This document shows positions 8,860 through 30,042 of a DNA stretch of 64,000 nt, one piece after another. Below the pieces are notes generated by a model. The model saw only the letters and a list, made by a program, of their open reading frames with translations, was not told the DNA's origin and made no database searches. Source of the stretch: Candidatus Saccharimonadota bacterium (GTDB taxonomy: Bacteria; Patescibacteriota; Saccharimonadia; Saccharimonadales; JAQGHD01); the NCBI GenBank assembly GCA_028288965.1, contig JAQGHD010000019.1, positions 25,202 through 89,201 on the forward strand. Reading direction: 5' to 3'. The position numbers and the translations under genes are program-made. How positions within the stretch are numbered: position 1 is the first letter of the stretch; each line of letters opens with the position of its first letter.

Positions 8860-9174
8860 ATGGACTTACAACAAAACCCAGAAAGTAACCGAGCAATAGA
8901 TATGACCATAGAAAGTCTGGAAGAAAATTTGGCATTGCATCGAGCTGCTTTTCCGGAACACGTCACGGCTATAAGGCTGCTCATCAGCCACCGAATGCTA
9001 AAAAAGTTACCACCGCTCTCAATGGATGTTGATGAGTATCCAAAAACGGCAACCTTGTCTAGATTTCAAGTAGCCTATTTAGGCAAACGTCTGGTGGGCA
9101 ATGCCATAGACGCCAAAGGCAAAGATTCCCTCAGCGCTCAGTTATCGATGGAGATTGAACAGGCGGGCTATTAA
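8860..9174 (+). CDS. Hypothetical protein
   Basis: 104-aa ORF, no motif. Confidence 0.35.
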   Translation: MDLQQNPESNRAIDMTIESLEENLALHRAAFPEHVTAIRLLISHRMLKKLPPLSMDVDEYPKTATLSRFQVAYLGKRLVGNAIDAKGKDSLSAQLSMEIEQAGY

Positions 9175-9226
9175 CGGTTATGTTTGCACGCTAGACTTTT
9201 AAAACGCTACTGTTAAAATTGAAAGC

Positions 9227-9535
9227 ATGACACATGAAGGCTTTGAGCAACCTCCTGATGCCGAAATTGCCGAAGCATTTAGTGGTGCAGCTTTTCTGGC
9301 AGAGCACGGCCTGGTAGATATAGCCGATGATATGATTGAGGCGCATGGCGGCCGCTTTACAGTGGCTGAAGCTATTGAGGGCTGCCGGCCTTTAGCTGAC
9401 ATGGTTGTCAGCCTGTCTCGTGACCTTAAGGATGTGCCTGGACATATGGGGATTATTAAAAACGCTATTCAATCAGCTGGGGGATCAACAGCTGAACGGC
9501 CAGTGCCGGAAGCAGCTAAAAAAAAATTGAAGTAG
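9227..9535 (+). CDS. Hypothetical acidic protein
   Basis: 102-aa ORF. Confidence 0.35.
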   Translation: MTHEGFEQPPDAEIAEAFSGAAFLAEHGLVDIADDMIEAHGGRFTVAEAIEGCRPLADMVVSLSRDLKDVPGHMGIIKNAIQSAGGSTAERPVPEAAKKKLK

Positions 9536-9552
9536 CAGCCGAAAAGCAAAAA

Positions 9553-10671
9553 GTGCCGAATACGCTTACCCAAAAACTCGCCAAGAAACAATCAGAACCA
9601 GACAGTCATACATACGAAGAACCAATTTTTAAAACGGCGGCACAGCCTAAACTGTCGCAAGACGTACTGGTTGAGACCCGCCAAGCAGAACAGGACCGTG
9701 AGGTCATTGAATACGACAGTGTACAACTGGTTGAGCCAGGCGTAGATATCCTCATCGAACTCAACCAACAAGCACTTGGTAGGGAGGCTGCAGAAGTAGT
9801 TAGTCAGCCTGTTGATTTAGCGAATGAGTTATCGCTCGAGCTGTCCCAGCCAAAGATAATGCCCCAGGCGCTACTCTCTGAAAATGAGTCTGTCGCTACC
9901 TTTGCCGAAATCCAAGTTCCAGAACCGTTGGTAGCCGAACTCAGTGAGCAAATTGCAGCGCTCATCCATAATCCAGATAACTGGCTGGCTGCCGAGCTAC
10001 CGGTTAAGCCGCTAGTTGATCAAACAATTGAGGATGTCTTTACTCCTGGGAAAATTGAAGAACCTGCTACAGAGTTTGAGACTTTCGATTCTGAGGCATT
10101 TTTGCTGGATCTGCAGGAACTTTTTGCCACCAGTAATGTTGGGCTGGAAGACAATCAACAAGAAGAATTAAGGGTTGAACTTGGAGAGGTTGGCATTGAC
10201 CAAGGAAAAGACGCTACATTTATAGATGGTTTAACCGAATTTGTGAAAACCCTCGAACCTCAAAAGGCCGAGCCTGCCGAAGCCTTACTAAACTCAGCCA
10301 TAGCTAAAATAGATCAGCTTCTGGAAATGGCGGACCAAGCAGCAGAAGGCGTTGCCGACACGCTGGAAAGTCAGCCAGAGTACGCAGAAGAACTTATGGA
10401 AATTTGTTTACAGCTGCTGGAATACTTGAGAATTGAAGGTATCGAGTTAAACGCCAACAAGCTATTGGTGACCCTAGTAAACAGCCAATATGCTAAACAG
10501 CATCTGTTACAAGCAAATGTTTTTAAAATTTCCGAATGGCAAGAACTTGGCACGCACGAACAAAAACATGATTCTCACTACGCAAGGAATTTGGGTACTA
10601 TTTGGCAAAGTGGCCAATCGCGGCAGACTATACTAGGCCAATTAGCCATCACTTTTACGGCTGCAGCATAG
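9553..10671 (+). CDS. Hypothetical highly acidic protein
   Basis: 372 aa, E/D/L/Q-rich; co-oriented with the two preceding small ORFs. Confidence 0.45.
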   Translation: MPNTLTQKLAKKQSEPDSHTYEEPIFKTAAQPKLSQDVLVETRQAEQDREVIEYDSVQLVEPGVDILIELNQQALGREAAEVVSQPVDLANELSLELSQPKIMPQALLSENESVATFAEIQVPEPLVAELSEQIAALIHNPDNWLAAELPVKPLVDQTIEDVFTPGKIEEPATEFETFDSEAFLLDLQELFATSNVGLEDNQQEELRVELGEVGIDQGKDATFIDGLTEFVKTLEPQKAEPAEALLNSAIAKIDQLLEMADQAAEGVADTLESQPEYAEELMEICLQLLEYLRIEGIELNANKLLVTLVNSQYAKQHLLQANVFKISEWQELGTHEQKHDSHYARNLGTIWQSGQSRQTILGQLAITFTAAA

Positions 10672-10911
10672 TTAAGTCCCGGTGTAGCTCTTTTAGATTT
10701 TCATAAAGTGCAGGTAATAAACAAGTGTGCCAACAAAGCCCAAAAACCACACCCCGCCGGCTCCACCATGTTGACTGACATTTCGCTTATTGATTAGCAT
10801 TAGATGGCTAGGCGTGAAATGAGTGACTTTGAGTCATATTACAAAGCGCTATTGAGCTAGAGCTTTCCTATTCCCCCGGGAGTATAATTGTAAGAGGCGA
10901 AGGGATGGCTA

Positions 10912-11679
10912 GTGGAGCAGGCTCAATTGCAAATAAGTCGGTGGAGCTGGCTGCGTATTCTGTTGGGCGGCGCGGTGCTGTTTGTGCTACTGGAACGGGC
11001 CTTGCTGGCCACCAGCGACATACTGTATCTACCCTCAATCTTACTTATCGGTGCTTTCACCGTACCGGTAGCTTTTATCGCGCTCCTATATTCAAGGGCG
11101 AAGGTGCCGGACGTACCATGGAGTACTTTAGGCTGGTGCTTTTTGTGGGGAGGTGTAGTGGGCACGGTCTTGGCTGGCCGATTGGAATATGAAACCTTAA
11201 AACACCTGGGAACTTTGCCAACCATTGCTATAGGCGTCAGCGAGGAGCTGGCCAAGATTGTTGTCCCGCTGTATCTGTTATGGCGTTGGCGTTACAAAAG
11301 TGTTTTTGACGGGCTTATTATTGGGGCAGCGACGGGAGCTGGTTTTGCAGCGCTGGAAAGTATGGGGTACGGCCTGGTAGCTCTGATTGCCTCTGGAGGG
11401 AATATCAACGCTGCCGTTGAGACCTTATTGTTTCGCGGTCTGATGGCCCCGGCGGCCCACATTGCCTGGACCAGTTTGCTGTGCGGTGCTTTATGGTATG
11501 CCAAGAGCCATTATGGGTTCAAAGCTCGCCGGCAACTTACGAATACGCTGGTGGGCGTTATACTGCTGCATGCCATCTGGGATAGTGTCACTTCGACGGC
11601 AGTGCTTATTGCATTGGGCTCGGTAAGCCTATTGTGGCTGTTGCTTCGTGTCCGGCAGGCTGAACGCCAGGGTTTATAG
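10912..11679 (+). CDS. PrsW-family-like intramembrane protease (multi-TM)
   Basis: Multi-TM protein with EELAK (EExxK), FAALE (FxxxE) and HAIWD (HxxxD/N)-type motifs on predicted helices, as in PrsW/CPBP-like proteases. Confidence 0.45.
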   Translation: MEQAQLQISRWSWLRILLGGAVLFVLLERALLATSDILYLPSILLIGAFTVPVAFIALLYSRAKVPDVPWSTLGWCFLWGGVVGTVLAGRLEYETLKHLGTLPTIAIGVSEELAKIVVPLYLLWRWRYKSVFDGLIIGAATGAGFAALESMGYGLVALIASGGNINAAVETLLFRGLMAPAAHIAWTSLLCGALWYAKSHYGFKARRQLTNTLVGVILLHAIWDSVTSTAVLIALGSVSLLWLLLRVRQAERQGL

Positions 11680-11756
11680 TTGTATAGGCAATAAACTAGG
11701 GGTACAGCTGCGATGACCTTCACGATGGCTGGCTAATCGCTTATACTAATAGGCAT

Positions 11757-12467
11757 ATGAAGCTCAAACTCTCGGCTCTTGTTGGCTTAATACTCACCGG
11801 CGTATTTGTATTGAGCAGTACCGCTCTGGCTCAAGGTATATACACGGCTGGATCGACCGGTGTTGATATATCATGGCCAAATTGTCGGGCCAAGGTGCCA
11901 ACCAGCGCCAAGTTTGGCATTGTGGGCGTAACCAACGGGCTGGGCTACTCCACTAGTCCTTGCCTAGTTAGTGAGGCAGCGCATTTTTCTAACCTAAGTT
12001 TTTATGTAAATACCGGCTGGAACAGCAGTTCTACGCACATTAACCCTACCAGCCCGCGGCTGTGTGCCGCCGCCGATAATAATTGTTTGGCCTACAATTA
12101 CGGCTATAACGCCGGACTTTATGCTTATAATGCGGCGTCTAGTGCCGGGCTGCACAGCACTACTTGGTGGCTCGACGTAGAATCGAATAATACCTGGTCC
12201 ACTGATGCCTTGCAGAATCAGAATAGCCTACTTGGTGAGCATGATGCATTGCTTGCCAGCGGCGTAGCAATCGTTGGGGCTTACAGCACCACGGCTATGT
12301 GGAACAGTATTACCGGCAGCTGGTTGAACAACTGGCCATCATGGGGTGCGACTACCTGGAAGACCGCTAACCAAGCCAAAACCTACTGCACCGGCCACCA
12401 GTTTACCGGCGGAACCACCTGGTTAATCCAATACCAGGGCCAGCTCGACCAAGACGTGGCTTGTTAA
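11757..12467 (+). CDS. Secreted glycoside-hydrolase-like protein (GH25-lysozyme-like / DUF1906-like fold)
   Basis: Signal peptide; GVDISWPNC near the N-terminus resembles the GH25 GIDVSxWQG start, later WWLDVE. Weak. Confidence 0.35.
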   Translation: MKLKLSALVGLILTGVFVLSSTALAQGIYTAGSTGVDISWPNCRAKVPTSAKFGIVGVTNGLGYSTSPCLVSEAAHFSNLSFYVNTGWNSSSTHINPTSPRLCAAADNNCLAYNYGYNAGLYAYNAASSAGLHSTTWWLDVESNNTWSTDALQNQNSLLGEHDALLASGVAIVGAYSTTAMWNSITGSWLNNWPSWGATTWKTANQAKTYCTGHQFTGGTTWLIQYQGQLDQDVAC

Positions 12468-15388: not shown

Positions 15389-16489
15389 ATGAAACAAAAA
15401 GTCTCCGCACGTGCTCGGCAGGCCCATACCCGGCAAAAAAAGATTGTTCGGGCCAATCGTCCCTACCATAAAAGGCTGCTACTAAGTCCTATTAGCGTCT
15501 TTTTCTTGCTTTGCGTCGGCGTTTTACTGATTGGTGTGACCTATCAGGCTCTAGCCGCGGATGTTACGGTGGTGGCCCAAAAGCCGGCGCCATTGCCCAC
15601 GTCCCCTGCGGTTATCGAACTGTTAACGCCGCAAAATCAAGCTGGCGATAGCCAAGCACCGCAAGCTGTAGCCAGCTCCCCAAAAACCTATCAGGTAGAC
15701 CGACAGATCATTACGCTCAGTGGTAGCTGTCCCAAAGACAGTTACCTAAAGTTTTATAGAAACGATTTATTTGCCGGTGTGACTATGTGCATTGGTGACC
15801 CGGTATTTAGTATTGAAATTAGCCTGGTGGATGGTCTGAATAAGATCGAGGCACATGTCTTTAGCTTGACAGACGGCGAAGGTCCGCTTAGCTTACCGTT
15901 TTACATAAACTACACGCGCCCCAGCCTGGCGGCGCCTGCTGCTAAGGGACCCACCAAAAGCCCAACTATTGTAGTGCCGCTGGCCGGTTCATTTCTGCTG
16001 ACCAGTAACTATCGATTTAGAGGCGTTTTTGTGAACCAGGCATTCAACTGGGATGTCGACATTCATGGCGGGACGCCGCCCTATAAGTTCGACGTCGATT
16101 GGGGAGATAGGAGTAGTAGCAATTCCACCCACCCATCTGTCTCGAACCTAGTACTTGCGCATACCTATTCCAAACCAGGCGGTTATAATGGCAACTATGC
16201 CATTAAAGTCCACGCGACAGATAGCAAAGCGGTATTGGCCAGTATGCAATTGATGGCCGTGGTAAATAATAAACCAAAGCCAAATGTTTTACTCGACACA
16301 ACCTGTGCCTCACCGGCCATTGGTTTTGGCTGTGCCTCGTGGTTGCCGAGCGTCCGGCATTGGCTTTGGGCGGTTTGGCCAACGTACAGCGTCGTGCTGC
16401 TTATGGCACTCAGTTTTTGGCTTGGCGAGCGCCAAGAAATTCGTCAGCTGCTGCTGCCAAAGCGTCGGATCCAGCACCGTCGGCCATGA
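15389..16489 (+). CDS. Membrane protein with PKD-like domain
   Basis: N-terminal and C-terminal TM helices; WDVDIHGGTPPYKFDVDWGDRSS...HTYSKPGGYNGNYAIKVHATDS fits the PKD signature (WxFGDG...HxY...GxYxVxLxVxD). Confidence 0.5.
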   Translation: MKQKVSARARQAHTRQKKIVRANRPYHKRLLLSPISVFFLLCVGVLLIGVTYQALAADVTVVAQKPAPLPTSPAVIELLTPQNQAGDSQAPQAVASSPKTYQVDRQIITLSGSCPKDSYLKFYRNDLFAGVTMCIGDPVFSIEISLVDGLNKIEAHVFSLTDGEGPLSLPFYINYTRPSLAAPAAKGPTKSPTIVVPLAGSFLLTSNYRFRGVFVNQAFNWDVDIHGGTPPYKFDVDWGDRSSSNSTHPSVSNLVLAHTYSKPGGYNGNYAIKVHATDSKAVLASMQLMAVVNNKPKPNVLLDTTCASPAIGFGCASWLPSVRHWLWAVWPTYSVVLLMALSFWLGERQEIRQLLLPKRRIQHRRP

Positions 16490-16522
16490 TAAATATCACT
16501 TCGATGCAGTATAATAACGTTT

Positions 16523-17596
16523 ATGCGTTGGCCAATTCTTGGAGGGTTGCTTTTGTTCGCGGCTCTGCCGGCGACGGCTAATTATCAGTTAAACTCATAT
16601 GGATTCGGCAATGGGGGAGTGGCCAATGCGTCGACTTCCAACTACGCGCTAGAGGGCATTAGCGGTGAGATTGGCGGCCAAACCGCCAGCACTGCCACCT
16701 ACCAAGTCAAACCGGGTTTTATTGAAACTCAGCAGTCCAATGTTCCTAAAATCGCGACGTTCGATAACGGCAGCGGCCGCTACTATAACAAGCTGCACTT
16801 TGTCCTAGACCAGCAGAGCAATCCATCTGACGCCACATATGCCTTGCAGATCAGCACTACCAGCGATTTTTCCAGCGGCAATAACTTTGTCAAAAGCGAC
16901 CTAACCATTGGCGCCACGCTCAATACCACCGATTACCAAACGTACGCGGCTTGGGGTGGAGCCAGCGGCTCAAACATTATTGGCCTGGTGCCCAGCACCA
17001 CCTACTACTTGCGGGCCAAAGTGACCCAGGTAAATTCCTTTAGCGGCGTTTCAACCGAAAGCGGCTACGGTCCGGCCAGCTCGGTGGCCACAGTGGGGCC
17101 GAGTCTGTCGTTTGATATTGATGTGTCGGCCATTGACACCTCCACCAGCCCGCCCTTTACCACCAATTTTGGCAACATACTGCCTAGTACCATCACCGAT
17201 AGCCCGCAGAAGATTTGGTTTAGCTTTGATACCAATGCCGTCAGCGGCGGCAGTATTTATATATCGGGGGCCAGCGGCGGGCTTAGGAGCACCCTTCGCT
17301 CCTACACCATCAGTTCGCTCAGCGGCGATTTGTCATCATCGGCCGAAGGTTTTGGGGCCCAAAACTCGTCTGCAACCCAAACTTCTGGCGGGCCAATCGC
17401 CGCCGCTAGTCCTTATAATGTGTCTTCCCAGAACGTCGGGATTATAGACAGCACCGTACGGCCCATGTATTCGGCGACGGCACCGCTGGTAGCCGGGCGG
17501 GTGTCTTTTTTGCTTAAGGCCAAATCCAAAGCCTTAACTCCACAGGCTACGGACTATGCCGAAACGCTTACTACCATTGCCGCCGGGAGTTTTTAG
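16523..17596 (+). CDS. Secreted S/T/G-rich surface protein (paralog 1)
   Basis: Signal peptide. The C-terminus ...ATDYAETLTTIAAGSF matches the C-terminus of the 18266..19360 protein. Confidence 0.5.
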   Translation: MRWPILGGLLLFAALPATANYQLNSYGFGNGGVANASTSNYALEGISGEIGGQTASTATYQVKPGFIETQQSNVPKIATFDNGSGRYYNKLHFVLDQQSNPSDATYALQISTTSDFSSGNNFVKSDLTIGATLNTTDYQTYAAWGGASGSNIIGLVPSTTYYLRAKVTQVNSFSGVSTESGYGPASSVATVGPSLSFDIDVSAIDTSTSPPFTTNFGNILPSTITDSPQKIWFSFDTNAVSGGSIYISGASGGLRSTLRSYTISSLSGDLSSSAEGFGAQNSSATQTSGGPIAAASPYNVSSQNVGIIDSTVRPMYSATAPLVAGRVSFLLKAKSKALTPQATDYAETLTTIAAGSF

Positions 17597-18182
17597 CTGC
17601 CTTATGCATCTGCCAAAACCAAAATTGTCCAGAGGCCGCGTGGTTTTTGGGCTGATCGGCTTCACGGTTATTATTTTTGCCGCAGTAATTGTTAAGCAAT
17701 TCAGCGGGCCGGCTATCGGCACCGTAAACAACAACATCAGTACGACAAACGATACCGCTCAGCACCTGCTGCACTTTGACGCTAAGCAAGCTAGTTTTGA
17801 TTATCAATCAGACTTAAAACAACAGGATAACGCCAAGGCCCAGCCCAATGTGTTGGAATATTACATATTCAACAAGGGGGCAGGTGATCATTCTGCCGCT
17901 GCCTACCTGGCGGTGAGCATTTATGCCCTGCCCAGTGGTAACCCGGACGATAACAGCGGCTTTCATTACCGCAAGCAGCACCCCGAACTGTACAGTTCGC
18001 GCGTGCTAGCCATAAACACCACTAATTTTGTGATTGTGACCAAAAAAGACAGCCATGAAATAGTAGCCTTTTCTACCCATGGCACCAAGTTGGCGGCTAT
18101 ATCACTGACCGCCGCCCTGGCGACCTCGAGCGAGTTGCAGAGTCGGTTCGATGGGGTGCTGAACTCTTGGGCCTGGAAATAA
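17556..18182 (+). CDS. N-terminally membrane-anchored protein
   Basis: 208 aa, single TM (VVFGLIGFTVIIFAAVIV); overlaps the upstream gene by 41 nt. Confidence 0.4.
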   Translation: MPKRLLPLPPGVFSCLMHLPKPKLSRGRVVFGLIGFTVIIFAAVIVKQFSGPAIGTVNNNISTTNDTAQHLLHFDAKQASFDYQSDLKQQDNAKAQPNVLEYYIFNKGAGDHSAAAYLAVSIYALPSGNPDDNSGFHYRKQHPELYSSRVLAINTTNFVIVTKKDSHEIVAFSTHGTKLAAISLTAALATSSELQSRFDGVLNSWAWK

Positions 18183-18265
18183 ACCTATTGACAAGATATC
18201 GGCCATTGTTCAGAATAAGCATAAGCTACAAATAAAAAATACAAAGCTATAATAAATATCACGGT

Positions 18266-19360
18266 ATGTACATGACCATGGCACGCATTTCAAAATTATC
18301 TACCAAAGGCCTATTGTTGGTAGGGCTGTTGCTGTTTGGTATTGTCGGATCGGTAGCAGTGGCGCGCCATGCCGGTGCCACCAATTTAGGGGTAGCCTTT
18401 GTCCGGCTGGATCGCCTGAAAGCCAGCACTGCCACCGGTGGTCGCGTCTGCGCCAAGCCGTCGGTTACCAATCTTGCTTCTGTCGAAGCCAGCGTCCAAG
18501 TGACGTTCCCGACCGGCTTTACGGTCAATACAACCTTTGGCAACTGGACCGTGAACACTTCTAACCTGGACACCGGTCAAACAGCGTGGCCAGGTATCAA
18601 CACCGCCACGGCGGCGGCTGGCCAGGTGGTTACCTTCCCAAGTACCGACCTAAGCTCCAGCTCGCTTACCTATTGTTTTAACTTTGTGGCCACCACGACC
18701 CTGACTAATGGCACGGCAGCAGCTGATCAAACCGGCACCATTACTACCCGCACCAGCGGACTGGCAACCATTGATTCTTCTAACTATGCCCTGGCCACCA
18801 TTTCAGAAGATACTATTTCGGTTACCGGCACCGTACCGGCTTCTTTTAACTTTGCTATCACCAGCTGTACCTCTGGTAGCTGTAACGACAACTTTACCGG
18901 TAACCTGACACCCGGCACGATTGCCGTTACAGCCGGCAAAGCTGTCACTATTACGACTAATGCGACCAACGGCTGGATAGCCTGGGCCAAAGACTTGAAC
19001 CAAGGCTTAACCTCAGCCAACCGCGCGGCCACCATCGCCACGGCGGGGACAGTGGATGGATCTCCGAGTACCCTGGCAACCGGCACCGAAGGCTATGTGC
19101 TCGATACTGACCTCACGACCGATGCGGCCGGCGGCGGCGCCGTGGTGATAAATGGCGAATACAATTACACGGGTACCGTCAATGGCACCACGGGTGGCGG
19201 TGGAACCCTGTCTGGTAACTTCCAGCCGATTGCCTCAGCTAATGGTGCGGCGGCCGGTGATGTTATTACACTCATTGAACGAGCAGCGGTGGGCGGCTTA
19301 ACCAAAGACGCTACCGATTACACCGATCAAATAACCATTGTCGGTGCCGGCCAGTTTTAA
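18266..19360 (+). CDS. Secreted T/G/A-rich surface protein (paralog 2)
   Basis: Signal peptide; C-terminus ...ATDYTDQITIVGAGQF. Confidence 0.5.
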   Translation: MYMTMARISKLSTKGLLLVGLLLFGIVGSVAVARHAGATNLGVAFVRLDRLKASTATGGRVCAKPSVTNLASVEASVQVTFPTGFTVNTTFGNWTVNTSNLDTGQTAWPGINTATAAAGQVVTFPSTDLSSSSLTYCFNFVATTTLTNGTAAADQTGTITTRTSGLATIDSSNYALATISEDTISVTGTVPASFNFAITSCTSGSCNDNFTGNLTPGTIAVTAGKAVTITTNATNGWIAWAKDLNQGLTSANRAATIATAGTVDGSPSTLATGTEGYVLDTDLTTDAAGGGAVVINGEYNYTGTVNGTTGGGGTLSGNFQPIASANGAAAGDVITLIERAAVGGLTKDATDYTDQITIVGAGQF

Positions 19361-19410
19361 AGTAGCACTTTCTTCACTTTTCAGTGGTAAAAATCATTCA
19401 TCAGCTATAA

Positions 19411-20478
19411 TTGTGGGCAGTGAAGGCAATCTTGAGACAAGCGGGGGTATGGTGCGGACTTTTTGTGGTGCTGTGTTTGCTGTTGGCGACTACGCCGCAA
19501 GCGGCGGCTCAGTCCAGCGGCGAGCTGAACCTGACCACTTCACCGTTACCGATCAATCTGGAGGTCAAGCCCGGAAATACTATCAGCACCGATTTGAGAG
19601 TCCAAAACTCTGGCAACCAAACCGAAACGCTTAAAATAGACCTGCAAAAATTCAAAGCTTATGGCGAAGACGGCAAGCCGCAACTCATTGCTCGGGAGCC
19701 GGGTGATGATTATTTTGACTGGGCGCATTTTTCCCAGACTACGTTCACGGCGGAGCCAAATGTCTGGACGACGATTAAAATGACTATTGCGGTCCCAAAA
19801 ACGGCGGCGTTTGGCTACTACTATGCGGTGGTGTTTTCGCGCGCTCATAACACTGTGGCGTCGCAGCCGCGGGCTAACTCTATTGTTGGCGGCACGGCGA
19901 CCCTGGTGCTGCTCGATGCCCAGGTACCTGGTGCCAAGAAGCAAGTAGACGTTATGGCCTTTATCTCAGATAAAAAGCTGTATGAGTATCTGCCGGCGCA
20001 GTTCACGATTCGCTTGCGGAATGCCGGGGTCGTGCACGTGGCGCCCAGCGGCACTCTGTTCATCCTGCGCGGTAAAAAACAGGTGGATCTCATAAACATC
20101 AACCCCGAAAAAGGCAATATTTTGCCCGGTTCTAACAGAATTTTCCGCATTGGTTGGGATAACGGCTTTCCGCGCTACGTGGCTTCGTCCAGCAATGGCC
20201 AAGTCATAAAAGACAAAAACGGCCAAGACGTCCAAAATCTAAAATGGGATTTTTCCCAGGCCTCACACCTTAGGATCGGACGCTACACTGCCAAATTACT
20301 GCTGACGTACGATAACGGCAGCCGGGACGTACCCATCCAGGCCAGTGTTAGCTTTTGGGTGCTACCCTGGAAGCTGTTAGCTGGCTTCTTGGTTTTCCTG
20401 GGGCTGTGCGGAGCCGGTTTGTGGTTTATTGCCAGGTCTTTGCTGCGCAAACTTAAAGCACCAAAAAGTCCGCGATGA
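19411..20478 (+). CDS. Cell-surface protein, DUF916/DUF3324-like (CscA-like), C-terminal TM anchor + basic tail
   Basis: Signal peptide. LNLTTSPLPINLEVKPGNTISTDLRVQNSGNQTETLKIDL resembles the DUF916 N-terminal domain. C-terminal WKLLAGFLVFLGLCGAGLWFIARSLLRKLKAPKSPR is a TM helix plus basic tail, as in WxL-locus CscA proteins. Confidence 0.5.
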   Translation: MWAVKAILRQAGVWCGLFVVLCLLLATTPQAAAQSSGELNLTTSPLPINLEVKPGNTISTDLRVQNSGNQTETLKIDLQKFKAYGEDGKPQLIAREPGDDYFDWAHFSQTTFTAEPNVWTTIKMTIAVPKTAAFGYYYAVVFSRAHNTVASQPRANSIVGGTATLVLLDAQVPGAKKQVDVMAFISDKKLYEYLPAQFTIRLRNAGVVHVAPSGTLFILRGKKQVDLININPEKGNILPGSNRIFRIGWDNGFPRYVASSSNGQVIKDKNGQDVQNLKWDFSQASHLRIGRYTAKLLLTYDNGSRDVPIQASVSFWVLPWKLLAGFLVFLGLCGAGLWFIARSLLRKLKAPKSPR

Positions 20479-21434
20479 AACGGTTCGCCACCGCCCTAAC
20501 ACTTATATGCATGGGTCTGCTGTTGGGGCAGCCACAACCGACCCGGGCGGCCACCAAGCCTGGACTCACGCTCGAACCATACATCAAAGAATTAACGATT
20601 GGGGCAGACGATGCCAGCAGCGGTTTTGACCTGCATGTTACGAATAACTCCGGTCGAGATGGCAACTTTCAACTGACGGCGGTTGATTTTGGTAGCTTGA
20701 ACGACAGCGGCGGCCTGCTATTTGGCGGCGTGAACGAGAGTAAGTTGGTGAAAAAATATGGCTTGGCGAACTGGCTAACCTTGCCCAAACAGCCAGTAGC
20801 CATAAAACAAGGCGTAAGCACGGCGGTACGCGTAACGCTCACCAATGACCGTAACTTAACACCGGGCGGCCATTATGCGGGGGTGTTTATCACCCCAACG
20901 TTTGGCGCGGCTTCACCAAAGATCAACATTAACCAAACCGTTACGGCTCTGGTGCTGGCGGTCAAAAAAGGCGGCGATGTGCACGATTTGCGGCTGGTTC
21001 ATACCAGCGATGACCATAGTCTTTTTCGGGCTCCAGCGCGCGCGACGCTTAGTTTTCATAACCCAGGCAATGTTCACGTGGTTCCCAGAGGCATTGTCAT
21101 GCTTAAGCAGGGTGACACGGTAGTGGCCAAAGGTATTATCAATGAGCAGTCAGCTTTTGTGCTGCCCGAAGCACGTCGAAAATATGACGTCGCCCTTAAA
21201 CCCCAAAAGGGGGCCAAGCCCGGATGGCTAACCACAACCTATACCATGCAGGTTGATTACCGCTATGACGGCTATCAGTATTATGCCTCGTCCCACTATC
21301 AACTACGGGTATGGAATGCCGCGGCCTATGAAATCGGCGCAGTGGTGGTTCTGGGCTTTGGCGTGGTACTGTTACTGGCGTTCAGGCGAAAAAAATCTCG
21401 CCCCCGGCGGTTTAAACTTTTTCGGCACGAATGA
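20475..21434 (+). CDS. Cell-surface protein, second DUF916/DUF3324-like paralog with C-terminal TM anchor
   Basis: Signal peptide, similar domain order, C-terminal AVVVLGFGVVLLLAFRRKKSRPRRFKLFRHE; start overlaps the upstream stop (ATGA). Confidence 0.5.
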   Translation: MKRFATALTLICMGLLLGQPQPTRAATKPGLTLEPYIKELTIGADDASSGFDLHVTNNSGRDGNFQLTAVDFGSLNDSGGLLFGGVNESKLVKKYGLANWLTLPKQPVAIKQGVSTAVRVTLTNDRNLTPGGHYAGVFITPTFGAASPKININQTVTALVLAVKKGGDVHDLRLVHTSDDHSLFRAPARATLSFHNPGNVHVVPRGIVMLKQGDTVVAKGIINEQSAFVLPEARRKYDVALKPQKGAKPGWLTTTYTMQVDYRYDGYQYYASSHYQLRVWNAAAYEIGAVVVLGFGVVLLLAFRRKKSRPRRFKLFRHE

Positions 21435-22044
21435 GGTCAATCAAAGCTTTTTCGGATTCGATGATAACGGTTTGACGGCGCACTGAAATAATGCCTTTTT
21501 GCTCTAGCTCACGCATAAATCGGTTAACGGTCTCGCGGGTGGTGCTGATTGATTCGGCTATTTCGCCGTGCGTCATGGGTACATCAATAATAATGCGGCC
21601 GCCAGATTTGACACCAAGCCGCATACCAAAGTAATACAGCCGCTCCAGCAAGCGCTGCATGGTTTGGGTGCTCAGCAAGCTATCTATCTGATCACCCTGG
21701 ACGGACATCATATTGGTTAGGGTGTTGAACATTTCGGTACCATATTTGCCAGAGCGTATGGCTTGGTCAAACTTTTGGCGCGATATAGTAACAACGCTCA
21801 AGGTTTTGAGAACTTTGTAATGGAGTGTCCGGCCAGAGTATAAGCTGTTTTTCTGAGGTGTTCTTACCGGAAATATTTCACCACTGAGTCGAATAAGAAG
21901 CAATCTGTTAGTCTTTTTTTGACGGGGGAAGTGACTGTATACCGCCAGCACACCCGAGCGAATGAAGTGAACATCACTGCCGAGGGGTACAGCATCGCCT
22001 TTGGCATATACCGCAACCTTACCACCTTTAAACATCTCTTCCAT
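21412..22044 (-). CDS. Crp/Fnr family transcriptional regulator
   Basis: N-terminal cNMP-binding-like region and C-terminal HTH (THGEIAESISTTRETVNRFMRELEQKGII) typical of Crp/Fnr. Confidence 0.75.
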   Translation of the reverse strand: MEEMFKGGKVAVYAKGDAVPLGSDVHFIRSGVLAVYSHFPRQKKTNRLLLIRLSGEIFPVRTPQKNSLYSGRTLHYKVLKTLSVVTISRQKFDQAIRSGKYGTEMFNTLTNMMSVQGDQIDSLLSTQTMQRLLERLYYFGMRLGVKSGGRIIIDVPMTHGEIAESISTTRETVNRFMRELEQKGIISVRRQTVIIESEKALIDLIRAEKV

Positions 22045-22193: not shown

Positions 22194-25100
22194 ATGAGCT
22201 CAAATCGCAAAGTGTTTTTGGTCACATGGCGTGGGCTGCTGGTGATACTACTCGGTACAGTCGGCTGGTTCGTGGCGACCACCGCTCGCGCCCAGGCTGC
22301 CGGCCCGGCCCTCATTAATTTCCAGGGCAAGGTAGTGAACGCTGACGGCACCAATGTAGCCAACGGCAGTTATAACTTTGATTTTGTATTGTTTGATGAC
22401 TCAAGCCTAGGAACACCCAGTGACGGTGTGCATGATAAATGGCATGAACTAACCAAGAGCACCACCGTTACCAACGGTGTTTTTCAGACCAACTTAGGTT
22501 CTGCCACGGCTTTGCCGGACTTTAACGCCAATCCTACGCTGTACCTGGCGGTTAAATTTAACGGTGATGCCGCCGGCTATATGACGCCGCGGGTGCGCAT
22601 AACGTCATCACCGTATGCGCTGAATGCCGATAACCTGAATGGCTTGACCAGCGCGGCCTTTGGACAGCTATCTACCGCCAACGCCTGGACTAATACCACC
22701 TCCATAACTACTACCTCAACTACAGCCTTTCAGGTCAAAAACAGTTCAGGCCAGATCCTCACCGTAGATACCTCTGGCAACCAAGTCATCTTGGGCAAAG
22801 CTGGCGGCAGTGGCATCACCGGGCTGCTGGCCTGGCAAAACTCAACCAACGCCAACACAGTCGGGCTGACCAGTGGCACCACCAGTTCCTCGTATGTTTT
22901 GACGCTGCCCACAGCCCTGCCAGGAACCACTCAGTGTATTGCCAGTAGTAACACCGGCGCGCTGAGCTTCACTGGTTGTTCAGGCGGCAGCAGCACGTTT
23001 GCTACCACCTATAGCGGCGGGGCCAGCCAAACTGACAGCACAGTGACTCTGGATAGCACGCGGCTGGGACTAATCATCAAAGACAACGCTACTCCAGTAA
23101 CGGGCAGTGCCTTTCAGGTCCAAAACTCGGCCGGGCAGCAAGCCTTTGCCGTCAACACCTCCGGCACTAACAGCAACAACCTGATTGGCAACGCTAGTGT
23201 CGAATTGGCTATTGCCGTAGCCGCTGGGAACTGGAAACTAAAAGGTAGCGCGGCCGTCAGCCAAAGCAGCTTGCAAGCCTACCTGGGCACCAACTCACTC
23301 AAAGTTATCTCTACCGCCGCCACCAACGATGGCGCTCAGCAGCAACTGGCCTCGACGCTGAGCGTCAGTTCCCGCTACATTGCCTCGTTCTATGCCAAAC
23401 TCGATGCGGCCTCCAACTTCACGACCACCAATGGTATGAGTACCCTGACGGCTGGTTATTCATCCACCGGTGCTTCCGATGACACGCCGTGCACGCTCAA
23501 TACCTCAACCGTCAACAGCAGTGGCTGGACCAAGATCACTTGTAGCTTTACCACCCCGGCTTCAACCAGTAGCTCCAACTATTTTTATATCAAGCAAACT
23601 GATGCCAAAATCTACACCTACTACATTGATGCGGTGTTGCTGCAGACCGAAGCCAATGCCCAGAATAATTACCGTGAGGGCCAAGTATCGGTCCAAAGCG
23701 TGATAGTCAGCCCGCTGATTTTGCAAAACAGTTCTAATTCGTCGAACGGTTTGCTGGTACAAAACGCCTTGGGTACCAACATATTTGGGGTGGATACCAC
23801 TGACAGTAACCTGATCACCAATCCGGGGTTTGAACTAAACACCACCGGGTGGACTAGCGTCGCTGGTGGCGGCACCTCCACGATCACGAGGGATACCAGT
23901 CAGTCGTGGTTGGGCAATGCCTCCATGGGCATCACAACGGCCAGCGGCACCAATGCCGGCGCCAAATACGTGACCGGCAATGTCCAACCTACCCAATTGG
24001 CGGTGTCTTCTAGCTATACGTTGTCTTGGTATGCCAAGCTTTCGGCCAGTACCTTTACCGATATGCGGGCGGTGTATGCGCGCGATGGTTCCACGGAAAC
24101 GGCTTGCCTATCGAGCTTAACGGTGGTGACCGCTGGCTGGACGCGTTATAGCTGTACGGTCGCAACCGATGGTACGCTGCCGGCTTCTACGGCTTACCTA
24201 GCCATTGAGCAGGTAGGCAGTGCCAGCCGTACCTTTTGGCTGGACGGCGTGCAATTGGAGCCTGGTACCGTAGCCACCCCATATGGTGCCGGTGGCTTTA
24301 GCTTTAACGGCACAGTCAACTCGCCCCTATTTATTAAAAACGTGGCCAACTCTACCACGGCTTTTCAGGTGGCGAATGCTTCTGGCGTAGCCCTGATGAC
24401 CGTTGATACCTTAAACAGCAGCCTGAACCTGGGTTCGGGTTCTGGCCTAACCGGTAAATTGAGCCTCAGCAATGCTACCAATAACAATACCGCAAGCATT
24501 CAATCTGGTGTTACCTCTGGCTCATACACCTGGACGCTGCCCGCAGCTGATGCGGCTGGTTGTTTGCAGTCCAACGGCTCAGGAACCCTTTCTATTTCAG
24601 CTTGCGGCGACACTCACAAAGACGTCGTGAGCTCTACCAGTACCTGGACCAAACCCACCAACGCTTTAATGATCATGGTTGAAGCCTGGGGTAGCGGCGG
24701 GGGCGGGGGCGGTGGTGCTGGGAACTCGACGGCAGCCGCCCGAACTGGCGGCGGTGGTGCCGGTGGCGGGGCGTATAACTCCGTGACCATGGCGGCATCA
24801 GACGTGGGGGCCACCGTGCCTATTACTGTCGGTGTTGGCGGTACGGCCGGTACGGCTGGGGCCACGGCCGTCGGTGGTAATGGCGGTGCTGGTAACACCA
24901 GTTGTTTTAGTACAACCACGGCCTGTGCTGGCACAGTGTATCTCAGATCCTTTGGCGGCGGCGGTGGCTCTGGTGCCGGGGCGGCTGGTAATGGCGGTGG
25001 TGGCGGTGGTGGTTCTCAGCAGGTTGGCTTCAGCTCAGCTGGTTCAACCGGCGGTGGCGGCGGTGGCGGTCCAAGCGGTGGTGGTGTGGGTGCCAATGCC

Positions 25101-26768
25101 GCAGGTTGGGGCGGCGCCGGCGGCCAAACAGCCATAGCTAACCCTTCGGCAGCTGGCGGCGGCGTGGGTGTCTTTGGCGGTGGCGCCGGCGGTGCTTCAT
25201 CAATTGATGGTACGGCGGCCTCTGGCCAAGGCGGCGGCAGTATGAAAGGCGGCGCAGCCGGTGGCGCCGGCGGTAGTTGTGCCATTACCACCTGTACGAC
25301 CCGAGCCGGTGGCGCCGGGGGGAATACATCTTCTGTTACTTTTGGCGGTGCGGCTAACGGCGGCAGTGGTGCCGGCGTAGCTGGCACGGCCGGAACAGCT
25401 GGGGTAGGCTCAGGGGGTTACGGTGGCGGCGGCGGTGCCAGTAACAACGCTGGTGCGGGCGGCGCTGGCGCCGTAGGTGGCGTAGAAGGTGGCGGCGGTG
25501 GCGGCGGTGGCGCTGGTGAAACAACCACTGGTGGCATTGGCGGTATCGGTGGAGCTGGTGAAGTCCGCATTTGGACACTCCGCGGTACGGGTGCCGACTT
25601 AGCCGAAATCTACTGCAGTAACGATACCAGCCTGGCTCCCGGTAATACGGTGGCCATAGATCCGAGCCTGCAGGCCGGGGTCCGCAAAACCACCAAAGCG
25701 TATGATTCAACCGCCCTGGGCACTATCTCTACCAGCCCAGGTTTAGTGACCGGAGCTACCGAAGAAACCTGTGCCAAACCGGTGTTGGTGGCCTTGGCCG
25801 GACGGGTGCCGGTAAAAGTCAATGCCCAGAACGGTCCCATTAAAGCCGGTGATTTATTAACCGCTTCATCTACACCAGGCGAAGCCATGAAAGCCACTAA
25901 GGCCGGTACCATTATTGGCCAGGCTATTACTACCTATGACAGCAGTATGCCGGACGGCTATGTGGTAGCCTTTGTTAAAAGCAGTCAAACCGTTGGCAGC
26001 GGCTTGTTCGATGCCATTCCGGGCCTCACGCCGCCCAGCGATCAAGCCGCGCAAGTGCTTTCATTGCAGCAGCAAGCCCTCGATTACCTTGTCCATCACC
26101 AGCAAGATTTGTCCAAGCAAGCTAACCTATCGGAAATTGTCACCGACCGTGTCAGCGCCGGACTGGAAATCATTACGCCATCGATCCTGGCTGGAAATGT
26201 ATCGGCCAATAGCATTAGTTCGGCCATTGGCAGCGACATAAACCTCGTGCCCGGCAAAGACGGAAAAGTAGTATTAAAAGATCAATCCGGCCAAGTAAAA
26301 ATGAGTTTTGATAGTAGCGGCAGCGCCTCCTTTGCTCTGGACTTAAGTGTGGGTGGACTGCTCAAAGTTGGCGGCGGAATTCAGGTTAGTGGCTTAGCCA
26401 CTTTTGGAGGAACCGTTGAATTTCAGCAACTGGCCAAGTTCCTCGGGGGCGTCGAATTTAATAGCGACGTTAGTTTCCTGGGCCGGCCAATCTTTAATGA
26501 CGACAGCGGCGGCTTTGCGGTGGTTGGTACTGGTCAAACCACCCAAGTCGTGACGTTTGCTAAGCCGTACACGGACCTGCCGGTGGTGAATCTTAGCATC
26601 AGCGATGGCCAGTTTGCCCTGTATGCCTATAGTTACTTGAAGGATAGTGATCAAAAAATTACCGGCTTCACCATTACCCTCCAACAAGCGGCCGCCAGTG
26701 ATATTCGGTTTGCCTGGTCGGCTATAGCTGTTAAAAATGCAAAAACGGTGACTAGCGCTGGCCCGTAG
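22194..26768 (+). CDS. Giant (1524 aa) secreted surface protein with CBM4_9-like carbohydrate-binding modules and a ~280-aa Gly-rich low-complexity region
   Basis: N-terminal TM/signal segment; two regions with NPGFELNTTGW...W.G-type motifs (CBM_4_9-like); a Gly/Ala run from about aa 830 to 1110; conserved-looking C-terminal domain. Confidence 0.7.
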   Translation: MSSNRKVFLVTWRGLLVILLGTVGWFVATTARAQAAGPALINFQGKVVNADGTNVANGSYNFDFVLFDDSSLGTPSDGVHDKWHELTKSTTVTNGVFQTNLGSATALPDFNANPTLYLAVKFNGDAAGYMTPRVRITSSPYALNADNLNGLTSAAFGQLSTANAWTNTTSITTTSTTAFQVKNSSGQILTVDTSGNQVILGKAGGSGITGLLAWQNSTNANTVGLTSGTTSSSYVLTLPTALPGTTQCIASSNTGALSFTGCSGGSSTFATTYSGGASQTDSTVTLDSTRLGLIIKDNATPVTGSAFQVQNSAGQQAFAVNTSGTNSNNLIGNASVELAIAVAAGNWKLKGSAAVSQSSLQAYLGTNSLKVISTAATNDGAQQQLASTLSVSSRYIASFYAKLDAASNFTTTNGMSTLTAGYSSTGASDDTPCTLNTSTVNSSGWTKITCSFTTPASTSSSNYFYIKQTDAKIYTYYIDAVLLQTEANAQNNYREGQVSVQSVIVSPLILQNSSNSSNGLLVQNALGTNIFGVDTTDSNLITNPGFELNTTGWTSVAGGGTSTITRDTSQSWLGNASMGITTASGTNAGAKYVTGNVQPTQLAVSSSYTLSWYAKLSASTFTDMRAVYARDGSTETACLSSLTVVTAGWTRYSCTVATDGTLPASTAYLAIEQVGSASRTFWLDGVQLEPGTVATPYGAGGFSFNGTVNSPLFIKNVANSTTAFQVANASGVALMTVDTLNSSLNLGSGSGLTGKLSLSNATNNNTASIQSGVTSGSYTWTLPAADAAGCLQSNGSGTLSISACGDTHKDVVSSTSTWTKPTNALMIMVEAWGSGGGGGGGAGNSTAAARTGGGGAGGGAYNSVTMAASDVGATVPITVGVGGTAGTAGATAVGGNGGAGNTSCFSTTTACAGTVYLRSFGGGGGSGAGAAGNGGGGGGGSQQVGFSSAGSTGGGGGGGPSGGGVGANAAGWGGAGGQTAIANPSAAGGGVGVFGGGAGGASSIDGTAASGQGGGSMKGGAAGGAGGSCAITTCTTRAGGAGGNTSSVTFGGAANGGSGAGVAGTAGTAGVGSGGYGGGGGASNNAGAGGAGAVGGVEGGGGGGGGAGETTTGGIGGIGGAGEVRIWTLRGTGADLAEIYCSNDTSLAPGNTVAIDPSLQAGVRKTTKAYDSTALGTISTSPGLVTGATEETCAKPVLVALAGRVPVKVNAQNGPIKAGDLLTASSTPGEAMKATKAGTIIGQAITTYDSSMPDGYVVAFVKSSQTVGSGLFDAIPGLTPPSDQAAQVLSLQQQALDYLVHHQQDLSKQANLSEIVTDRVSAGLEIITPSILAGNVSANSISSAIGSDINLVPGKDGKVVLKDQSGQVKMSFDSSGSASFALDLSVGGLLKVGGGIQVSGLATFGGTVEFQQLAKFLGGVEFNSDVSFLGRPIFNDDSGGFAVVGTGQTTQVVTFAKPYTDLPVVNLSISDGQFALYAYSYLKDSDQKITGFTITLQQAAASDIRFAWSAIAVKNAKTVTSAGP
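24690..25560. repeat. Low-complexity GGC/GGT-rich coding repeat (Gly-rich region of the giant protein)
   Basis: Tandem GGCGGTGGTGGC-type units visible directly in the sequence. Confidence 0.7.
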
Positions 26769-26824: not shown

Positions 26825-27295
26825 ATGGACGAATCAGACGGTCACACAAAAACGGCCAAGCTCAAAAATCATAACCATTTAAGCACCAAAATTCTATCCG
26901 TGCTGGTAGCGTTATTGCTGGTGAGCACCGTTGTTTTAAGCTGGCGTTATAACCAGGCGCGTCATGAAGTCAAAAATCTTAAGAACCCCCAAAATTCGGT
27001 CAAACAAGAAGCCGATGCTTTGAAGGCCAAAGTTGGTCAACTAGTTGATCTGCCGGCCGAGGAACCAACTATTGCCGCCGTCAGTGATGTCACCAAATTG
27101 CAGGGCCAAGCCTTTTTTGCCAAAGCCCAAAACGGAGATAAAGTTTTGATTTTTCCCAATGCTGCCCGAGCCGTGTTGTACCGGCCGAGCACCAATAAAG
27201 TTATTGAATACGCCCCGGTCAACCTCGGGACCAGCGCCACTGCCGGCACCACCCCAAGCACGCCAATCCCCACTCCCACTGTCAAAAAGAAATAG
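26825..27295 (+). CDS. Membrane-anchored protein (single N-terminal TM)
   Basis: 156 aa, TM helix ILSVLVALLLVSTVVL, T/P-rich C-terminus. Confidence 0.4.
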   Translation: MDESDGHTKTAKLKNHNHLSTKILSVLVALLLVSTVVLSWRYNQARHEVKNLKNPQNSVKQEADALKAKVGQLVDLPAEEPTIAAVSDVTKLQGQAFFAKAQNGDKVLIFPNAARAVLYRPSTNKVIEYAPVNLGTSATAGTTPSTPIPTPTVKKK

Positions 27296-27362
27296 TAGCC
27301 ATAGCTTACAGTTTCTAAAACGCTAAAGCTATAAAGTAGTGGGCATGGTTTGCTATAATCGA

Positions 27363-28499
27363 TTTGAGGAGTACCCAGCGCTCATGAAAGCCAGTTTGCA
27401 AGACTCGTTACAGCGTTTACTAAACTCGGCAGATATCCGGCTGAATGGTAGCCGGCCGTGGGATGTGCAGGTGCATAACTCGGGGCTGTACAAGCGGGCC
27501 ATAGCCGGCGGCAGTTTGGGCGTAGGTGAAGCCTACATGGACGGCTGGTGGGATTGCCGCCGGCTGGACGACATGCTGACCCGAGTTTTTATGGCTCAGA
27601 TCGATCATAAACTGGTCGGCAATTTGCGCATCTTGCTCAAGATGGCCAGCACAAAAATCATTAATCCGCAGACGCTCAGGCGGGCCTTTGTGGTTGGTCA
27701 GCGACATTACGACCTGGGTAATGATCTGTACGAGGCCATGCTGGATTCGCGGCTGACCTACAGTTGCGGCTACTGGAAAACGGCCAAGGATCTGGACCAA
27801 GCTCAAACCGCCAAGCTTGATTTAATTTGCCGAAAGCTTGATTTAAAACCAGGCATGGCCTTACTGGACATTGGTTGTGGCTGGGGCAGTTTGATGGCTT
27901 ATGCGGCAGAAAAATATAAGGTTAAAGCCACCGGTGTAACGGTATCAAGCCAGCAAGCAGATTACATTAAAAAACGTTATAAACATTTGCCAATCTCTGT
28001 TCGCTTGGCCGATTACCGCACGCTGAGCGGCCAGTTTGATCGGATAGCCAGTGTGGGCATGTTTGAACACGTGGGAGCCAAAAACTATCAGACATTTATG
28101 AAGGTAGCCGAGCGTTGCCTAAAAGATGATGGATTATTTTTACTCCACACCATCGGCAGCAGTACTCCTCATTTTGGCACGGACCCTTGGATAGATAAGT
28201 ATATTTTCCCCAACAGTTTAATCCCAGCTGCTTCTATGATTACCAAAGCCTATGAAGGCAAGTTTGTTATGGAAGATTGGCAAAATTTTGGACCGGACTA
28301 TGATAAAACACTGCAAGCTTGGCACAAAAATTTTAATAAAGCTTGGCCGCAATTAAAAGGTATGTACGATGAACGCTTTCGGCGCATGTGGAATTTTTAT
28401 CTTATGGCGTCAATGGCGCAATTTCGAACTCGCAAGTTGCAGCTCTGGCAAATTGTGCTATCCAAAGATCAGCCGCAGCGCTACGACGCCCCGCGTTAG
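27363..28499 (+). CDS. cfa: Cyclopropane-fatty-acyl-phospholipid synthase
   Basis: GSLGVGEAYMDGWWDC, HYDLGNDLYEAMLD, SAM-binding LDIGCGWGSL and FDRIASVGMFEHVG are CFA synthase hallmarks. An alternative upstream start lies at 27339. Confidence 0.85.
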   Translation, partial: FEEYPALMKASLQDSLQRLLNSADIRLNGSRPWDVQVHNSGLYKRAIAGGSLGVGEAYMDGWWDCRRLDDMLTRVFMAQIDHKLVGNLRILLKMASTKIINPQTLRRAFVVGQRHYDLGNDLYEAMLDSRLTYSCGYWKTAKDLDQAQTAKLDLICRKLDLKPGMALLDIGCGWGSLMAYAAEKYKVKATGVTVSSQQADYIKKRYKHLPISVRLADYRTLSGQFDRIASVGMFEHVGAKNYQTFMKVAERCLKDDGLFLLHTIGSSTPHFGTDPWIDKYIFPNSLIPAASMITKAYEGKFVMEDWQNFGPDYDKTLQAWHKNFNKAWPQLKGMYDERFRRMWNFYLMASMAQFRTRKLQLWQIVLSKDQPQRYDAPR

Positions 28500-28581
28500 A
28501 TCTTTATTGCACTAGCACGAATGCTGGCAGGCTTTCAGGCATGAGCACTTTATTCGGAACACTTTTTGCTATTATGCAGGT

Positions 28582-29085: not shown

Positions 29086-29149
29086 ATTGTGTCCCTAACA
29101 CTCCAAGCAAAAGACTCCTCAAGTATAAGGAGCCTTTTGGTTAGGGTGT

Positions 29150-30007: not shown

Positions 30008-30042
30008 TGTTCCTCCTTTTTTGGGTTGATAATTTTAGTGCA

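Follow-up and report, generated by a model that had tools for sequence, protein, structure and literature searches.

A probable Pam-type pilus locus in a Saccharimonadota genome and its link to DUF916/WxLIP proteins

The closest described counterpart of the locus analysed here, which occupies positions 15389-21434 on the + strand of a 64,000-nucleotide (nt) stretch of a Candidatus Saccharimonadota genome (contig JAQGHD010000019.1, positions 25,202-89,201; the whole stretch is referred to below as the window), is the Pam pilus. This system was described by electron cryomicroscopy (cryo-EM) of filaments from Candidatus Mycosynbacter amalyticus, a Saccharimonadia parasite (Troman et al. 2026, bioRxiv 10.64898/2026.03.03.709456). 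Its pilins PamA and PamB (WP_260763287.1 and WP_260763280.1; PDB 25PZ and 25QA) begin with a sandwich of nine strands, which a single linker strand joins to a truncated immunoglobulin (Ig)-like C-domain; this C-domain receives the linker of the adjacent subunit, and ConSurf analysis identified the donated linker and the C-domain binding site as the most conserved pilin regions. PamC (WP_260763277.1) and PamD (WP_260763284.1) are FimC/PapD-like chaperones with an unusual C-terminal transmembrane (TM) helix, PamE and PamT (the latter WP_260763289.1) are further pilins, and PamR, an RbmA-like protein that has an additional strand at its N-terminus and a TM helix at its C-terminus, was proposed to terminate and anchor the pilus. 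The system was found mostly in Saccharimonadia, with a tail-fibre-like gene consistently near the pam operon and ATP synthase genes as frequent neighbours (all from bioRxiv 10.64898/2026.03.03.709456). A second point of reference is WxLIP, the membrane protein of WxL surface complexes, which is composed of DUF916, DUF3324 and a TM segment and for which AlphaFold predicts a strand insertion that completes the WxL sandwich (Hassan, Chaudhuri and Williamson 2023, PMC10599100).

The six-gene locus and its tie to the Pam pilus

It is likely that the locus is a Pam-type pilus operon, somewhat divergent, of the kind described in 2026. The tie by sequence is that of its first gene to PamR, while g2, g4, g5 and g6 were likened to Pam proteins by their described architecture; the M. 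amalyticus proteins were not among the best 120 homologues of g4 and g5, the 95 g1 homologues or the best 80 loci. The open reading frames (ORFs), named g1 to g6 in order, are all present on the + strand, and are separated by short spacers or overlap:

15389-16489, + strand: g1, 366 amino acids (aa), PamR homologue
16523-17596, + strand: g2, 357 aa, secreted pilin-like protein
17556/17604-18182, + strand: g3, 208 or 192 aa by the start used, membrane-anchored protein
18266-19360, + strand: g4, 364 aa, secreted pilin-like protein
19411-20478, + strand: g5, 355 aa, membrane-anchored chaperone-like protein
20475-21434, + strand: g6, 319 aa, membrane-anchored chaperone-like protein, whose start overlaps the g5 stop by 4 nt

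The g1, g4 and g5 products are 100% identical to deposited proteins of a metagenome-assembled Candidatus Saccharibacteria genome. Topologies were read from hydropathy and a motif script. A first-pass annotation of the window had described a six-gene cell-surface cluster, and the six co-directional genes, their signal peptides and the C-terminal anchors confirm that description. It had also considered such a cluster new for this kind of organism, which no longer holds, as the 2026 description of the Pam pilus of Candidate Phyla Radiation (CPR) bacteria and Saccharimonadia covers this gene set.

Comparison of g1 with NCBIfam revealed a full-length match to NF058578 (CPR_pilus_PamR, pilus system RbmA-like protein PamR) with an E-value of 3.4e-48 and a score of 164 bits, in which g1 residues 45-354 were aligned with positions 11-290 of the 297-position model. 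Because the curated (equivalog) cut-off of this model is 300 bits, we regard g1 as a PamR homologue and not as an equivalog. Ten g1-like proteins from syntenic loci all matched PamR, with scores of 166-305 bits. The PamR-like protein of locus L059, at 305.4 bits, exceeds the cut-off, and therefore loci that NCBI's own model would call pam share the gene set of the locus studied here.

The topology of g1 also follows that of PamR, in that an N-terminal TM or signal segment is followed by two Ig/FnIII-PKD-like domains, a C-terminal hydrophobic stretch and a basic tail. The protein had previously been labelled a PKD membrane protein; its membrane topology stands, and several of its homologues carry PKD/Big_13 labels, but g1 itself has no Pfam PKD match at E<=1, and the PKD label was rejected in favour of PamR. 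The extra N-terminal strand of PamR has a counterpart as well:

15560-15586, + strand: g1 residues 58-66 (DVTVVAQKP), mature N-terminal strand, which resembles the pilin linker

Across 93 PamR-like sequences the mature N-terminus, directly after the signal peptide, has the consensus Y.V.A.VPGP, which is closely like the pilin linker IVVTATVPP. By analogy with the PamR model of the preprint, we propose that residues 58-66 may serve as a donor strand that caps the last pilin, and that g1 may be the membrane anchor and terminator of the pilus.

Synteny was assessed by scanning a g5 alignment against one genome per GTDB species and examining the best 80 loci by tblastn and ORF analysis; many of these loci are interrupted by contig ends. 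A g5 relative is encoded in 388 species genomes. Within the 80 loci, g5 was found in 80, g6 in 77, g4 in 73, the gene for a fibre-like protein downstream of g6 (the fibre gene) in 70, g2 in 69, g3 in 31 and a g1-like gene in 18. The order was nearly always g2-g4-g5-g6-fibre on a single strand (69-80 of the 80 loci, depending on the gene). Conservation as a unit in related genomes, which the first-pass annotation had named as a check, was thus found to be strong, and the core unit g2-g4-g5-g6-fibre is fixed across hundreds of Saccharimonadia-type genomes.

Many of the loci (L013, L015, L023-L025, L028, L029, L049, L068 and others) lie in metagenome-assembled genomes labelled Bdellovibrionales, Burkholderiaceae, Terrimonas, Limnocylindria or Fimivivens, yet their gene content is Saccharimonadia-like. 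These labels outside the CPR are probably due to mislabelling or mis-binning, and they bear on the claim that the Pam system is exclusive to the CPR.

Pilin-like and chaperone-like products

Both g2 and g4 have an N-terminal signal peptide, no further hydrophobic segment and a composition rich in T, G and S (T 17.9% and G 12.1% in g4). No Pfam match was found for g1, g2, g3 or g4 at E<=1. The elements of g2 and g4 that matter most for what follows are:

17546-17593, + strand: g2 residues 342-357, C-terminal strand ATDYAETLTTIAAGSF
19310-19357, + strand: g4 residues 349-364, C-terminal strand ATDYTDQITIVGAGQF, the final C-domain strand (356-362 in the model)
18809-18838, + strand: g4 residues 182-191 (DTISVTGTVP), inter-domain linker, family consensus DQIVVxAxVP

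The C-terminal strand common to the two proteins is as the first-pass annotation quoted it and is conserved in the family; the shared motif is not due to chance. The two proteins had been called paralogs, and this is correct for their C-terminal ~170 residues, to which the relationship is confined (27% identity, E 1e-7 by BLASTP; 99.2%, E 3e-19 when family profiles of g2 189-357 and g4 188-364 were compared), and not for their N-domains, whose sequences are unrelated.

An AlphaFold model of g4, for which 104 homologues served as input, had a mean predicted local distance difference test score (pLDDT) of 92.6. As read from its secondary structure, the model has nine strands in residues 43-179 and 13 in 194-362, with residues 180-193 free of secondary structure, and the N-domain contains an invariant Cys62-Cys137 pair. 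The predicted anatomy of g4 is therefore that of the Pam pilins, with an N-terminal nine-strand domain, a linker and a C-domain, and g2 is connected to this architecture by the shared C-domain. Conservation across 93 g4-family sequences was highest in the ten-residue window 351-360 (consensus DYTDTLTVVG), followed by the linker window 182-191 and by 231-240 (TNAxxGWIAW), which lies in the C-domain, which matches what the preprint states for the linker and the C-domain binding site of the Pam pilins. Residues D351, Y352, D354 and T357 of the C-terminal strand, and D182 and V190 of the linker, are invariant in the 104 homologues. Because the linker is highly conserved yet unpaired in the model of the monomer, an intermolecular role fits it well, and we propose that it acts as the donor strand and that the C-terminal strand forms the edge of the groove that receives it.

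The g4 family has more than 1000 homologues and is present in 1-3 tandem copies in related loci; the deposited g4 annotation begins at the third codon. Foldseek searches with the g4 model against a PDB set that did not include 25PZ and 25QA returned generic two-Ig adhesins and pilins with TM-scores below 0.3, among them FnBPA, SdrG/SdrD, Cna and cohesins. We consider g4 to be probably the major pilin subunit, with a size like that of PamB. In g2, a weakly FN3-like N-domain (fn3-type matches in 8 of 31 family members) is joined to a Pam-type C-domain, and because it is present in single copy and is the first gene of the conserved core, we take g2 to be a probable minor or adaptor pilin. In the g2 family, the mature N-terminus (residues 20-49, 16580-16669) carries a strongly conserved double motif, NYQLxSYGFGSGG..N..S.NYALxGIxGE, the second half of which resembles the end of the g4 N-domain (SSNYALATISED); this double motif could be a second strand-donating element.

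The g5 and g6 proteins each begin with a signal peptide and end in a TM helix followed by a basic tail, with 6-8 K/R in the last 15 residues. They are paralogues, with 23% identity over 228 aa and family profiles that align over their full length (99.9%, E 2e-32). The deposited g5 protein is 348 aa long, and for this reason the true start of g5 is probably downstream of the TTG at 19411 that opens the longest ORF. This gene is often duplicated in related loci. The AlphaFold model of g5 (pLDDT 92.3) consists of two beta (Ig) domains and a terminal helix at 320-349. When this model was compared with the PDB by Foldseek, WxLIP ranked first, followed by the chaperone-usher chaperones CfaA, CsuC, YadV and CupB2 (E 4e-9 to 7e-7) and then by RbmA; the top matches were the Enterococcus faecium WxLIP structures 9i25_C (E 1.1e-10) and 9i1y.

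In the g5 model, a low-confidence loop at 151-160 (pLDDT 62) precedes a highly conserved strand, GGTAxLVLL, at 160-169. The loop and strand appear to resemble the F1-G1 loop and the G1 strand of usher-pathway chaperones, and by this analogy the conserved strand at ~160-169 of g5 and g6 is likely to be the donated element. The two chaperones of the Pam system thus have candidate counterparts in g5, by its model and TM helix, and in g6, by full-length paralogy, and the best reading of both is that they are membrane-anchored two-Ig-domain chaperones, PamC/PamD-like as well as WxLIP-like.

The remaining gene of the cluster, g3, encodes a protein of ~190 aa with a single N-terminal TM helix. Its ATG at 17604, just past the g2 stop, is a likelier start than 17556, which lies inside g2. 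The family comprises 302 representative clusters at E<=1e-3, and in other loci the gene either separates the PamR-like gene from g2 or lies after g6 and ahead of the fibre gene. Two alignments searched against Pfam and the PDB, together with a full-library phmmer search, found no relative of g3 in either database, apart from a weak PsbP_2 hint in 2 of 70 family members, and no profile similarity to g1, g2, g4, g5 or g6, including the pilin C-domain, was observed.

Taken together with the M. amalyticus work, these features suggest how the products might function. In a cell that has no outer membrane, a filament would be built on the cytoplasmic membrane through donor-strand exchange, and its assembly would be usher-free. 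Sec would export all six products. Each of g4 and g2 would end in a C-terminal beta domain that is short of one strand, and g5 and g6 would hold pilins fresh from export by supplying a strand of their own (donor-strand complementation). This chaperone strand would then give way to the linker of the following pilin (g4 182-191), which would lie against the conserved C-terminal strand, with growth from the base of the filament. Finally, the linker-like N-terminal strand of g1 would cap the last pilin, and its C-terminal helix would tie the filament to the membrane, with g3 as an accessory protein and the downstream fibre protein as a conserved companion. For polymerisation, strand exchange, the identity of the donated strand, the order of subunits and a role in contact with a host, we infer from M. 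amalyticus what may apply here.

Homology of g5 and g6 to DUF916/WxLIP and the WxL question

The first-pass annotation had described g5 and g6 as DUF916/DUF3324-like and had read g2 and g4 as WxL domains without tryptophans. For g5 and g6, Pfam gave sub-threshold Ig-type matches only (fn3_5 at 8e-4, PF06030 at E 0.2). DUF916 (PF06030) scored 12 bits against a cut-off of 27.3 bits and was found at E<=0.01 in 4 of 110 family members, and there was no Pfam match to DUF3324 (PF11797). NCBI gives one g5 homologue the name 'DUF916 domain-containing protein'.

A stronger connection was obtained through plasmids. A tblastn search of plasmids with g5 detected an Arthrobacter DUF916 gene. The DUF916 genes of Arthrobacter, Streptomyces and Curtobacterium (L081-L084) directly follow small WxL-like genes, often near a MarR regulator, and the small genes have a weak Pfam WxL match (E 3e-4) or are annotated as 'WxL domain-containing protein'. 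A Deinococcus DUF916 relative (L085) adjoins unannotated hypothetical genes only. Because actinobacterial plasmids carry pairs of WxL-like and DUF916-type genes, WxL-type clusters are not confined to Firmicutes gut commensals.

A DUF916 profile was built from five of these plasmid proteins and compared by hhalign with the families of the locus. The alignment probability was 98.7% for the g5 family (E 2e-16 over 300 columns) and 99.3% for the g6 family (E 3e-20), and after removal of the signal peptide and TM helix it was 97.7% for g5 and 98.3% for g6, whereas the controls g1, g2, g3 and g4 all remained below 1%. Among PDB sequences, the actinobacterial DUF916 profile matched only EfmWxLIP1 (E 0.008). 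Along with the top Foldseek matches to WxLIP, these results give good support to homology of g5 and g6 with DUF916/WxLIP proteins, as superfamily relatives and not as members by Pfam criteria. The earlier DUF916 assignment accordingly stands at the level of fold and profile, but not at that of the Pfam threshold, and its DUF3324 part found no Pfam match.

The WxL assignment of g2 and g4 fared differently. The WxL model (PF13731) matched neither protein at E<=1 and none of 104 members of the g4 family at E<=0.1, and neither the PDB profile search nor the 50 top Foldseek matches of g4 contained a WxL chain. When the pilin C-domain was compared with four actinobacterial small WxL proteins, hhalign gave 0.8%, and the global score was within the null distribution (z = 0.7 versus 31 shuffles); a profile of the small WxL proteins found no match in the PDB. 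The best local alignment between the two groups was in the C-terminal strand (LAASDYEATIT versus PAASDYTDTLT, 11 columns, E 0.07). Apart from this C-terminal motif of 11 residues, no similarity of g2 and g4 to WxL domains was thus detectable.

The locus itself is of a known kind, and the homology between the Pam chaperones and WxLIP is the unreported part that is worth reporting. The Pam preprint does not mention WxL or DUF916, and we found no paper that links DUF916/WxLIP with PapD/usher-type chaperones or WxL with donor strands, which, given incomplete coverage of the literature, is absence of evidence only. This homology gives the Pam system relatives outside the CPR. For the WxL/Csc clusters of lactobacilli, enterococci and Listeria, which are poorly understood, it also suggests a mechanism that can be tested, namely chaperone-like strand donation from a membrane anchor.

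A broader, tentative idea, which at present we think is possible but rather doubtful, is that the Pam pili of CPR bacteria and the WxL/Csc clusters of Firmicutes, with the actinobacterial and Deinococcus pairs, are two branches of one ancient surface-assembly system that operates without an outer membrane. In such a system the DUF916/WxLIP protein would be a PapD-like chaperone, and the WxL domain would be homologous to the C-domain of Pam pilins, both being strand-deficient beta domains that share the C-terminal strand D-Y-x-x-T-[IL]-T. Of this idea, the chaperone half is well supported and the subunit half is not. If it were true, WxL complexes would assemble by donor-strand complementation or exchange.

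Surrounding genes, alternative readings and comparison with known systems

The cluster has a GC content of 0.51-0.53, the same as the flanking DNA. Upstream of it is a ClpC gene on the minus strand, and downstream are the following:

21412-22044, - strand: Crp/Fnr-family regulator, convergent between g6 and the fibre gene, overlapping the end of g6 by 23 nt
22194-26768, + strand: fibre-like secreted protein, 1524 aa, outside the region covered by the first-pass annotation
26825-27295, + strand: ORF of 156 aa, also found after the fibre gene in 22 loci
27339-28499, + strand: CMAS-family methyltransferase (mycolic acid cyclopropane synthase family, E 1e-88)
36082-38322, - strand: MprF-like lysyl-phosphatidylglycerol synthase

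The fibre protein has an N-terminal Bdello_MAT_N domain (E 1e-6), of the Bdellovibrio 'mosaic adhesive trimer' fibre family, two CBM_4_9 domains (E 2e-19) and a long Gly-rich stretch (GC 0.60). Its gene follows g6 in the 70 loci mentioned above, and it may be a host-recognition fibre that is functionally tied to the pilus. The Crp/Fnr gene has a counterpart at that position in none of the 80 related loci. The CMAS-family and MprF-like enzymes modify lipids and may bear on the envelope or on the handling of host lipids.

Other filament types were considered and rejected. For type IV pili, inspection showed no prepilin-type leader, and no pilus ATPase or secretin match was obtained in the scanned neighbours. 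For sortase pili, g2 and g4 terminate in AG(S/Q)F and lack a TM helix, the motif script found no LPxTG in g1-g6 or the fibre protein, and no sortase was present among the scanned proteins. For classical chaperone-usher pili, there was no PF00345 or PF02753 match in the cluster or scanned neighbours, and g5 and g6 are membrane-anchored. Altogether, neither the cluster nor its scanned neighbours yielded an usher, sortase or ATPase, and the Pam system is not proposed to include one.

Several observations weigh against a Pam-type pilus. The g1 score falls below the PamR cut-off, a g1-like gene was found within 10 kb in just 18 of the 80 loci, and g2-g6 had no NCBIfam match even at E<=10. The order g1-g6 is unlike the order that the M. 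amalyticus accession numbers in the preprint suggest. No ATP synthase gene was detected among the ORFs scanned at 354-12467 and 26825-40986. Lastly, no PamT-like single-domain tip pilin was recognised; g3, the sole single-domain candidate, is unlike the pilin C-domain.

These points should be considered beside what else could explain the locus. The homology of g5 and g6 to DUF916/WxLIP, together with the DUF916 name that NCBI gives to one g5 homologue, would also be expected of a non-filamentous complex of the WxL/Csc type, in which g5 and g6, as WxLIP-like anchors, hold g2 and g4 one to one by strand insertion and no polymer is formed; moreover, no filament has been observed for this organism. 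We consider such a complex unlikely. Neither Pfam, the PDB profile search, the Foldseek top 50 nor hhalign gave a WxL signal in g2 or g4, and dual Trp-x-Leu motifs and an LPxTG partner are absent from the cluster. In addition, a holder would leave unexplained both the extreme conservation of the linker and its mimicry by the N-terminus of the PamR-like protein, and PamR itself ties the locus to a system that was seen as filaments by cryo-EM.

The generic two-Ig adhesins recovered by Foldseek for g4, at TM-scores below 0.3, would be compatible with independent Ig-fold adhesins or an S-layer-like coat, co-encoded with membrane proteins to which they bear no chaperone-subunit relation. Promoter and terminator scans of the locus performed no better than shuffles, and because of this the operon is not proven, which would suit independent genes too. 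Against this stand the order and orientation of the genes, fixed in ~70-80 of the 80 loci, the g5 relatives in 388 species genomes, the tight spacing or overlap of the genes, the conserved C-terminal strand and linker, and the similarity of g5 and g6, by fold and profile, to proteins that bind their partners by strand insertion; we regard this explanation as very improbable. A Pam-type pilus thus accounts best for the locus.

Compared with the WxL/Csc clusters of Firmicutes, the locus is similar in that g5 and g6 share the WxLIP architecture and that their partners are secreted, beta-rich and have their conserved domain at the C-terminus. It is different in that g2 and g4 have no Trp-x-Leu pairs, there is no LPxTG protein, and g5 and g6 do not reach the Pfam thresholds for DUF916 and DUF3324, and WxL clusters are not known to have a PamR-type anchor or to polymerise through a linker.

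The chaperone-usher pili of Gram-negative bacteria (Pap/Fim, CFA/I, Csu) share with it incomplete Ig-like subunits with a conserved C-terminal strand, a two-Ig chaperone and, as proposed here, donor-strand exchange; the similarity of g5 to their chaperones is at the level of fold only. Here, however, usher and outer membrane are lacking, the chaperones are anchored in the membrane, the subunits have two domains, and the candidate donor strand is the inter-domain linker, whereas theirs is an N-terminal extension.

The Pam pilus remains the nearest system. The locus departs from it in the sub-cut-off score of g1, in the gene order g1-g2-g3-g4-g5-g6, in that neither ATP synthase genes in the scanned surroundings nor a PamT-like tip pilin were recognised, in the mutually unrelated N-domains of g2 and g4, in a g3-family gene that is unmatched to any Pam component, and in the Crp/Fnr gene inserted before the fibre gene. 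It agrees with the Pam pilus in its Saccharimonadia lineage, in signal peptides on all products with no usher, sortase or ATPase in the locus, in a PamR homologue, in two-domain secreted pilins with a conserved linker, in two paralogous two-Ig chaperones with a C-terminal TM helix, and in the fibre-like gene that lies alongside.

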